Of a DNA stretch of 64,000 bases, positions 18,752 through 19,420 are shown piece by piece. Under the pieces are notes generated by a model that saw nothing but the letters and a program-made list of their open reading frames with translations, was not told the origin of the DNA and ran no database searches. The stretch covers positions 3,077 to 67,076 of the forward strand of contig LBYO01000001.1 in NCBI GenBank assembly GCA_000996205.1, in the 5' to 3' direction. Numbering within the stretch: the stretch's first letter is position 1; each line of letters starts with the position of its first letter. Source of the DNA: Parcubacteria group bacterium GW2011_GWA1_40_21 (GTDB lineage Bacteria; Patescibacteriota; Minisyncoccia; Phycocordibacterales; GWA1-40-21). A program made the translations under genes and the position numbers.

Positions 18752-19420
18752 AAACGCTCATCCCGATGAACATCGGGATTCGCTTCTGTGAAAGGAGGCG
18801 GAGAGCAAATGTCTCATCTGTTGGCAACAATAGAAAGTAAATTTGTCCCGATTTTGATTGCCAAAAGCAATGACAAAATCGAGGATCCCGATAAGCGTAA
18901 GCGACATCGGGAGCTATATGCTGGAAACTCTGCGAATGCGAGAGTACCGAAAGGTGACAATCTCTCGACGATGCAGACAATCAGCAGGGAAGATTTGCAA
19001 ACTGTATTAAGGAAAAGTTCTTTGGGTGGGGGCAGAAATAGGCACTATATCAAGGGAATGGGTGAATAATTAAGGCAACCTGTCCGGAAGGTTGATTACA
19101 CTTAGTTATTCGCAAAAATGATTCTTCAAGAGAAGAATATAGAACATTCCAATTTAATGGTATAGACGGGTTCGATTCCCGTTGCCTCCACCAATAATAA
19201 GTTTTATTACTTATTTCCTTAATATAGTTTGCAAAAACCCTCAGAGACTACATGCCAAACCCCCTCCTCAGATTTTTTGAAAAAATCTGAGGAGGGGTGA
19301 AGATATAGTCCGAACTGCATAGCGATATGCAGAGCGAAGCAGAAATGACTTCGCCGTCAGCAAGATTTTAGATTTAAATTTTTAGATTTAAGTTTCAATT
19401 TTGTTGTCGCAACAAAATTG
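18752..19420 (+). mobile_element. group I-like intron in 16S (ggattagat|accccagtag site) with small ORF and tRNA-like 3' fragment
   Basis: 669-nt insertion; 5' exon ends T, intron ends G; starts with palindrome tcccgatgaacatcggga; contains hairpin+ggggtgaagatatagtcc. Confidence 0.6.
18809..19069 (+). CDS. intron-encoded small hypothetical protein (87 aa) with strong SD
   Basis: aaaggagg 10 nt upstream of ATG; basic protein; no HEG motif recognised. Confidence 0.3.
   Translation: MSHLLATIESKFVPILIAKSNDKIEDPDKRKRHRELYAGNSANARVPKGDNLSTMQTISREDLQTVLRKSSLGGGRNRHYIKGMGE

Follow-up and report, generated by a model that had tools for sequence, protein, structure and literature searches.

A group I intron in a Parcubacteria 16S rRNA gene with a tmRNA/tRNA-Ala-type tRNA-like domain as cargo

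Cargo in the peripheral loops of group I introns is well known, and includes homing endonuclease genes in L1, L2, L6, L8 and L9, twin-ribozyme introns and IStrons. Intron-form genes for transfer-messenger RNA (tmRNA), with a group I intron within the T loop of the tmRNA, were reportedly described by Williams in 2002. A 2025 tmRNA database lists standard, permuted and intron forms, together with a few tag-less tmRNAs from jakobid mitochondria, two plastids, phage DS6A, Nasuia and one Patescibacteria species (PMC11915505). In a study of transfer RNA (tRNA) introns of Patescibacteria, tmRNA appears solely as an intron host gene (PMC13011429). In a survey of 1,346 ribosomal RNA (rRNA) insertions in the candidate phyla radiation (CPR), the word tRNA is absent and cargo modularity is not described (PMC11270868), and we found no description of a tRNA-like domain inside an rRNA intron in the literature on CPR rRNA introns. 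Here, a stretch of 64,000 nucleotides (64 kb, hereafter the window) from Parcubacteria group bacterium GW2011_GWA1_40_21 (CPR/Patescibacteria) was analysed. Within its 16S rRNA gene lies a group I intron (18752-19420) with a tag-less domain of the tmRNA/tRNA-Ala type as cargo, a rare object which was found in three lineages. We consider the identity of the intron and its anatomy, as described below, very likely to be correct.

The intron and its tRNA-like domain

The 16S rRNA gene (17880-20239, on the + strand, as are all features of the gene and its intron given below) matches positions 1-1533 of the Rfam model RF00177 with 1118.9 bits and is a complete bacterial 16S, although it spans 2360 nt compared with the 1533 positions of the model. 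It is split exactly at 18752-19420, with GGATTAGAT on one side and ACCCCAGTAGTCC on the other. The insert of 669 nt follows U793 (E. coli numbering), where the -1 base is U18751, and its terminal base is G19420, directly before ACCCCAGTAGTCC; joining the exons restores GGATTAGATACCCCAGTAGTCC. As the upstream exon ends in U and the insert ends in G, in line with the rules for group I introns, the insert could be assigned to this class. The -1 U is paired with a G of the guide sequence, the intron-exon junctions are identical in seven related sequences, and a P3-P9 core with the P, Q, R and S elements reaches the gathering threshold of the group I model (RF00028; 50.9 bits at 19115-19332, gathering score 50). 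For two relatives, L011 and L007, the scores are 64.4 and 60.3 bits, and P1 through P9 are aligned. Judged by its sequence, from which splicing itself is also predicted, 18752-19420 is a group I intron after U793 of the 16S that lacks a homing endonuclease gene. An earlier note on this DNA, in which the segment was called a 16S intron, was therefore right on this point.

The same note had placed a tRNA T arm, an acceptor strand and CCA near the 3' end of the intron, with no matching 5' half nearby. The 3' element is indeed there, at 19166-19193 (ACGGGTTCGATTCCCGT followed by TGCCTCC, A and CCA), and is made up of the T arm ACGGG-UUCGAUU-CCCGU (19166-19182) and the 3' acceptor end (19183-19193), with UGCCUCC, in which U19187 is U70, A73 at 19190 and CCA at 19191-19193. 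The 5' half, however, is not missing, as GGGGGCA at 19028-19034, the sole copy of this sequence on the + strand of the window, is its exact partner. The pairs are G1-C72, G2-C71, G3.U70 (a wobble pair, with G19030 as G3), G4-C69, G5-C68, C6-G67 and A7-U66, and the pairing is conserved. Both tRNA-Ala and tmRNA have the combination of G3.U70, A73 and CCA as their identity set. Because a 7-nt partner arises in 12% of dinucleotide shuffles, the acceptor pairing alone is weak evidence, and it is the comparative data that carry the argument. An alternative 5' partner, GGAGGCG at 18794 in a Shine-Dalgarno (SD)-like motif, pairs perfectly with UGCCUCC and was rejected, being missing in all relatives.

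The tRNA-like domain (19028-19193, 166 nt) is found at the tip of a 21-bp extension of P6. The GGU just before it (19025-19027) pairs with A73-C74-C75 and lengthens the acceptor helix to 10 bp (19025-19034 with 19183-19192) in the minimum free energy (MFE) fold. The module as a whole was delimited to 19025-19193 from the MFE fold, weak Rfam tmRNA scores and its conservation in L011 and in a Saccharibacteria sequence, L035. Next to the 5' acceptor strand is a D-loop analogue (GAAAUAGGCA, 19035-19044), whose 10 nt are unpaired and without a D stem in the MFE folds. It is followed by a P2-like helix and three inner helices (19045-19165), a region of the fold with no conserved reading frame. The P2-like helix has 8 bp (19045-19052 with 19158-19165) and adjoins the T stem without a variable loop, and the inner helices are formed by 19055-19060/19145-19150, 19062-19081/19089-19113 and 19121-19127/19132-19138. 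The fold of 19020-19200 has an MFE of -63.5 kcal/mol (z = -6.3) with the acceptor helix closed. In these predicted folds, the architecture is that of the tRNA-like domain of a tmRNA and not that of a cloverleaf.

For the class of the element, a 27-nt T-arm/acceptor pattern (ACGGGTTCGATNCCCGTNNCCNCCACC) was scanned over 185,579 species genomes, which gave at least 119 loci. Among the 119 loci listed, ARAGORN called 87 tmRNA, 18 tRNA-Ala, 1 tRNA-Leu and 1 undetermined tRNA, with 12 left uncalled; 105 of the 119 matches listed were thus tmRNA or tRNA-Ala. All 28 bases of the window element are also found in an intact tRNA-Ala(GGC) of an Actinomycetes genome (L121). The resemblance to tRNA therefore extends well past the T-loop consensus; a chance match confined to that consensus was what the earlier note had named as a refutation. 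The 7th acceptor pair is A-U in the window, compared with G-C in the 87 tmRNA matches among those listed.

All the parts of the tRNA-like domain of a tmRNA are present, namely G3.U70, A73, CCA, the T arm, a stemless D loop and P2. A canonical tmRNA was ruled out by the lack of a conserved tag frame, by the predicted folds, in which no pseudoknot was seen, and by the thresholds of Rfam and ARAGORN, which were not reached. No tag frame is common to the window, L011 and L035. The only candidate frame (GCA at ~19112 to UAG at ~19163) suffers a 20-nt deletion in L011, which is not a multiple of 3, and the peptide read from it (AKMILQEKNIEHSNLMV) was discarded, as its C terminus is not Ala-rich and neither L011 nor L035 conserves it. 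The 131-nt interior folds as simple hairpins with no room for four pseudoknots, although no dedicated pseudoknot search was made. A tRNA-Ala can be set aside as well, since the fold has neither a D arm nor an anticodon arm with an Ala anticodon.

Conservation and relocation of the domain in related introns

The intron of L011 is located at the same 16S site and is 77% identical to the window intron. Its acceptor reads GGGGGUA/CACCCCC, in which C6-G67 is replaced by U6-A67, a compensatory change that is also present in L035. Compensated changes were also found in the P2-like helix and the long inner hairpin, the inner hairpin at 19121-19138 is deleted, and the T arm has one change in the loop. 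When folded independently, the MFE structure of L011 contains the same stem, acceptor, P2, T arm and small 3' hairpin.

In L035, which together with L033 and L226 represents one Saccharibacteria sequence in three assemblies (99.8-99.96% identity), the module is inside a 16S insertion and consists of GGGGGUA, 85 nt, the same T arm as in the window, UACCUCC and ACCA. Between the window and L035, the T arm is the same at 17/17 positions and the acceptor differs by one compensated pair, while the interior can barely be aligned; G3.U70, A73 and CCA are common to both. The L035 module was matched by the full-length Rfam tmRNA model with 32.7 bits (E = 1.2e-10) with the message part deleted, and its tRNA-like fold is 1.6 kcal/mol above the MFE. 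In the three-lineage alignment (window, L011 and L035), 88% of the cells are paired, compared with 41-46% in slid controls, and 15 pairs are changed on both sides, compared with 1-4 in the controls. For the platform stem, which is the 21-bp extension of P6, 100% of the cells are paired, with 6/21 pairs changed on both sides.

The host of the L035 module is a related group I intron inserted after U788 (not U793), in which P7'-P9 are 93% identical to those of the window. P6 is short in this intron; the module follows downstream of P9 and is borne by a stem of 20 bp (CTTGCACACTTTATTGAGAG), whose sequence is homologous to that of the P6 stem of the window. Another arrangement was found at 650-900 of L012, a 23S rRNA fragment, where intron 1 has the same long P6 platform stem with other cargo, an SD-led ORF of 45 codons with a hydrophobic product (MKEFLKDFLFFARDVWSIGWSPRVVFFRYFVVTPILILIIWLIIK), for which a database search returned no homologue. 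Intron 2 of L012 is 97.5% identical to the window over 80 nt of P3-P5, and has only a short hairpin as P6. As introns 1 and 2 of L012 and the intron of L035 differ in the cargo, presence or position of the unit, the stem, the cargo and the small 3' hairpin are, by sequence comparison, a cassette which is present, absent or relocated among closely related cores.

The 16S gene of L035 contains two group I introns 5 nt apart (L035:124-2254). Intron A (124-1237, after U788) carries the tRNA-like domain and is followed by the 5-nt exon UAGAU, and intron B (1243-2254, after U793) has a long ORF, presumably for a LAGLIDADG endonuclease. In L001-L010, the sequence is 100% identical to the window intron from 18972 to the 3' end; upstream of 18972, the P1 loop is wholly different, the 67-nt insert in P3 is missing and the P5 extension is different. 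This pattern indicates recombination breakpoints within the intron and mosaic evolution, as far as can be read from the alignment.

Searches for the module elsewhere gave no blastn match in 50,697 phage records and 0 matches in an exact 28-mer scan of viral contigs. A metagenome scan for GGGGGYA-N{84,114}-T arm returned 95 loci, one of which was real (L226); the others were rejected as tRNA arrays in which the 7-mer is unpaired.

A stand-alone mini tRNA-like domain of 73 nt was observed in an intergenic region of a Saccharibacteria contig (L013:525-720, CAZTXE010000054.1). It consists of GGGGGUA, 36 nt, a T arm identical to that of the window, UACCUCC and ACCA, and matches the L035 module exactly in its acceptor and T arm. 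About 45 nt past the CCA, 13 nt (GUGAUAAGCUUUC) perfectly complement a segment inside the domain itself, and beyond this follow further complementarity and a terminator-like hairpin (z = -6.1 for the whole region). Neither ARAGORN nor Rfam made a call for this domain; judging by its layout, it may represent an unusual tmRNA-like gene, either tag-less or in two pieces.

Ribozyme anatomy, the small ORF and neighbouring features

The annotation of P1-P6 in the window was transferred from the alignment of L011 and L007, in which P3 is UUUGGC and P4 is UGCUGG, followed by P5 and by P4' as UCAGCA within AAUCAGCAGG; the P6 loop of L011 holds a 191-nt insertion in this alignment. The core accordingly starts far upstream of the Rfam hit in the window. 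Rfam's own alignment of the window intron, in which P1/P2 were placed on the 19119-19139 hairpin and P4-P6 were nearly empty, was dropped in favour of that of L011 and L007, as it is distorted by the 67-nt insert in P3, which misleads the model. The R element (UCAGAGACUACA), P8, the S element (AAGAUAUAGUCC) and P9 are visible in the Rfam alignment of the window copy.

P1 is formed between the 5' exon strand GAUUAGAU (18744-18751) and the internal guide sequence GUCUCAUC (18811-18818), which is the same in all seven aligned introns. The partner of G18811 is U18751, and 7/8 positions are paired between the exon GAUUAGAT and the guide GUCUCAUC. The variable loop of P1 (L1, 18752-18810) contains an 18-nt perfect palindrome, TCCCGATGAACATCGGGA, at 18761-18778 and the SD-like motif aaaggagg at 18791-18798; in L001-L011, this loop is longer and unrelated in sequence. 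The 5' strand of P3 (UUUG at 18842-18845 and GC at 18913-18914) is split by a two-hairpin insert of 67 nt (18846-18912), bounded by TCCCGAT...ATCGGGA, which is missing from L001-L011, while L035 has similar hairpins at the same place. P4 (18919-18924 with 18981-18986) and the enclosed P5/extension with a GAAA tetraloop occupy 18919-18986 and include the P and Q elements, based on the Rfam alignment of the homologous L011.

The platform stem is formed by a 5' arm (18994-19014) and a 3' arm (19215-19235). A small hairpin (19197-19214) closes the three-way junction between this stem and the tRNA-like domain in the fold, and has counterparts at the same position in L011, L035 and L012. The 3' part of the core (19241-19332, from the Rfam alignment) consists of J6/7-P7 with the R element (19241-19252), P3' (19254-19259), the P8 hairpin (19261-19297), P7' with the S element (19300-19311) and P9 (19315-19332).

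The earlier note had also drawn attention to aaaggagg and an SD-led ORF of 87 aa. Both the motif and an ATG ORF (18809-19069) are present, the latter with 86 codons, and its product is identical to the hypothetical protein UT90_C0001G0014 annotated in Parcubacteria group bacterium GW2011_GWA1_40_21. As a gene, however, the ORF does not stand up. Its ATG (18809-18811) overlaps the internal guide sequence, and the frame then runs through P1-P6 and on into the tRNA-like module, while the aaaggagg motif in the P1 loop is not kept in relatives. The conserved bases GCTATATGCTGGAAACTCTG of P3/P4 give ELYAGNS when translated in the window and GYMLETL, from a different frame, in the relatives, showing that the reading frame is not conserved. 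There is no family at E <= 1 in the Pfam search of the ORF, and neither the endonuclease or maturase domain of an intron-encoded protein nor conservation as a protein was found. The only four relatives in the database are all readings of the same ribozyme core, one of them from a 23S intron. The sequence comparison suggests that the 86-codon ORF and its SD motif are almost certainly a by-product of the ribozyme and no gene, and that UT90_C0001G0014 and its relatives are probably ribozyme sequence annotated as protein.

The palindrome near the start of the intron belongs to a family, as the earlier note had recognised, with other copies starting at 8842 and 9230. The family, TCCCGATG(AAC/TTC)ATCGGGA, is represented at 8842-8859, 9230-9247 and 18761-18778, which is three copies in the window compared with a chance expectation of ~2 for the 7-mer alone, and a 27-nt variant is found at 18886-18912. 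One copy is beside the tRNA-Ala(GGC) gene of the window, and there is a near-identical hairpin in the Saccharibacteria intron (L035:614-636).

Other features of the window concern its tRNA and rRNA genes. The gene for tRNA-Ile(GAU) (21446-21520) is followed, ~42 nt on, by a duplicate of its 3' two-thirds with a CCA end (21563-21627), which Rfam reports as a weak tRNA with 33 bits; its sequence suggests either a partial duplication in tandem or a repeat of the attachment-site type. At 5470-5544, 36 nt upstream of the 5S gene (5581-5688), ARAGORN called a tRNA-Ile that has a CCA end and the unusual anticodon AAU; this tRNA was not reported by the Rfam tRNA model at its gathering threshold. The order of the rRNA genes is odd, as the 23S ends at 2596, the 5S follows ~3 kb on and the 16S starts at 17880, ~12 kb downstream on the same strand. 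The 16S gene also has at least one further insertion, of 109 nt, near model position 189.

Possible roles of the domain and comparison with known systems

In our preferred reading, the domain would act as a tRNA mimic that the spliced intron releases, which is in the spirit of the second suggestion of the earlier note, a tRNA-like 3' structure with a role in processing. The intron would be spliced out of the pre-16S rRNA, after which the 21-bp, near-perfect stem would be a plausible substrate for RNase III. A cut by RNase P at G19028 and 3' trimming to the CCA ending at 19193 would then result in a 166-nt tmRNA-like RNA without a coding sequence (CDS). An acceptor/T minihelix that is coaxial and ends in RCCA is known as the classical minimal substrate of RNase P. 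The released RNA might be able to accept alanine and be recognised by alanyl-tRNA synthetase (AlaRS), and possibly by SmpB and EF-Tu, and the intron would serve as a host gene coupling the expression of the mimic to rRNA transcription. Taken together with the identity and anatomy of the intron, we think this reading could equally well prove right or wrong. The release and the tRNA-like use by themselves are tentative, and are ranked as the single most likely function. The full proposal, that self-splicing rRNA introns of the CPR host a small, alanine-accepting, tag-less tmRNA-like RNA that RNase III and RNase P cut out of the excised intron and whose production keeps pace with that of rRNA, is rather doubtful.

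Several points weigh against release. The cuts by RNase III and RNase P are purely inferred. The Rfam tmRNA scores of the window module are 22.1-25.6 bits (RF00023, gathering score 47) and the Rfam tRNA threshold is likewise not reached at the site. ARAGORN, run on the whole window and on 18701-19500 with default and relaxed settings, found no tRNA or tmRNA at the site and returned noise at ps50. All four mini-domains (window, L011, L035 and L013) have GU at -2/-1, paired with C74/A73, whereas among 83 true tmRNA genes that share this T arm, GU was found at these positions in one. The ACC at the acceptor end is what bacterial RNase P normally reads, and because the leader extends the helix over ACC, an embedded helix is favoured over a free tRNA end. 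In L011, there is G3-C70, a mismatch of A7 and C66, and ACCG instead of ACCA, so that, by its sequence, Ala identity and CCA are not universally maintained. Both the pairing of the leader with A73-C75 and the loss of G3.U70 and the terminal A in L011 would fit a mimic that acts in cis, or inert cargo. Only three independent lineages were found, with L035, L033 and L226 counted once. Finally, there is no evident need for a second tmRNA in Patescibacteria, for which 5252 standard tmRNAs were counted in 6765 genomes, along with three 'Standard NoCDS' entries of 9FT-COMBO-53-11 sp001772805 (PMC11915505); given these counts, and by analogy, the host very probably has an ordinary tmRNA elsewhere.

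It is possible, though less likely than not, that the domain is simply inert, being the tRNA-like domain of a tRNA-Ala or tmRNA that was captured in a peripheral loop and is tolerated on an insulating stem without any function of its own. Large inserts are tolerated in the peripheral loops of group I introns, and the platform stem in L012 bears unrelated cargo. The changes in L011 (G3.U70, the terminal A and the mismatch at 7:66) and the pairing of the leader with A73-C75 are consistent with this explanation, and the need merely to stay folded can account for the compensatory changes. Inert cargo is less easily reconciled with the agreement between the window and L035, where the T arm is unchanged and the acceptor is one compensated pair apart despite the diverged interior and the 6/21 changed stem pairs, and with the wobble in the middle of the helix, which is kept in two diverged lineages. 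Repeated gene conversion from the host tRNA-Ala or tmRNA could mimic this pattern of conservation.

A mimic acting in cis, which would remain within the intron or pre-rRNA and recruit AlaRS, EF-Tu, SmpB, TruB/TrmA or RNase P for the folding or splicing of the intron or for its turnover, is proposed by analogy and is unlikely. Mitochondrial tyrosyl- and leucyl-tRNA synthetases help group I introns to splice, and the P4-P6 domain of such introns is recognised by CYT-18; the window module is located on P6 of this domain. The 10-bp helix over A73-C75 in every lineage would also suit an element without free ends. However, the L035 module is located past P9 and not on P6, which leaves no fixed geometry to the core, and closely related cores manage without it, as shown by intron 2 of L012 and the short P6 of L035.

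Far less probable is the reading of the earlier note, a relic of tRNA-targeted insertion, in which an orphan tRNA 3' half is the scar of an attachment site and the SD-led ORF encodes a real small basic protein. Integration commonly takes place at the 3' ends of tRNA and tmRNA genes (PMC11915505), a true partial 3' duplicate of tRNA-Ile is present elsewhere in the window (21563-21627), and GGAGG is located 10 nt upstream of the ATG. Against this, the element is a conserved, closed domain with its own, covarying 5' acceptor strand, located within a ribozyme helix at the tip of P6, with no integrase, direct repeat or matching intact gene adjacent to it. The tRNA-Ala(GGC) of the window (8886-8958) was rejected as the source of the fragment, since its T arm and acceptor differ, and the ORF has its ATG in the guide, an SD and frame that are not conserved and no family match.

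The idea that the only tmRNA of the organism is a reduced, tag-less form inside an rRNA intron is barely credible, for although tag-less tmRNAs exist, including the three Patescibacteria entries (PMC11915505), and neither Rfam nor ARAGORN found a tmRNA within the window, only 64 kb of the genome was searched, standard tmRNA is recorded in 78% of Patescibacteria genomes, which are mostly incomplete assemblies, most related introns are without the module and L011 has lost the identity elements.

If release of the domain as a tRNA mimic is true, the intron would be a bacterial counterpart of intron-hosted small nucleolar RNAs. The RNA could then modulate or compete with trans-translation, in the same way as the tRNA-like-domain-only RNA of mycobacteriophage DS6A, which was reported to inhibit the host tmRNA (PMC11915505). 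Whether released or bound by tRNA-handling proteins, it would be the first example to be found of a functional non-coding RNA inside a bacterial group I intron, and would link rRNA transcription to a tRNA/tmRNA mimic in very reduced genomes. Even if the domain is inert, rRNA introns of the CPR swap cargo on a conserved long-stem platform, with a tRNA-like domain in P6 in the window, one of the same kind in Saccharibacteria, where it follows P9, and, in the 23S intron, a small ORF. Such elements can be missed by tmRNA and tRNA finders or logged as tag-less tmRNAs.

When compared with tmRNA (RF00023) and its CDS-less forms, the domain has in common the 7-bp acceptor with G3.U70, A73 and CCA, the stemless D region and the absence of a tag frame. 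Its T arm is the same as in many tmRNAs, and the helix at the position of P2 adjoins the T arm without a variable loop. It differs in being embedded in a helix of a group I intron instead of being a free-standing gene, in its leader, which pairs with A73-C75, and in having neither the UUCGAC-type motif of the D loop nor GGAC before the T stem. With tRNA-Ala, the domain shares an acceptor and T arm that are identical over 28 nt to those of tRNA-Ala(GGC) in L121, as well as G3.U70 and A73, but it lacks the D arm, the anticodon arm and the anticodon, and has 166 nt compared with 76.

The locus also resembles cargo-bearing group I introns, including the rRNA introns of the CPR (PMC11270868), in its putatively self-splicing core, its large foreign peripheral insert and its conserved rRNA site, and the insert is likewise polymorphic in presence and position among related introns. 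In this case, however, the cargo is a structured, tRNA-like RNA and not a protein gene or a second ribozyme. As in intron-form tmRNA (PMC11915505), a group I intron and a tRNA-like domain of the tmRNA type are nested, but the topology is inverted, as there the intron is inside the T loop, whereas here the domain is inside the intron and its T loop is intact.

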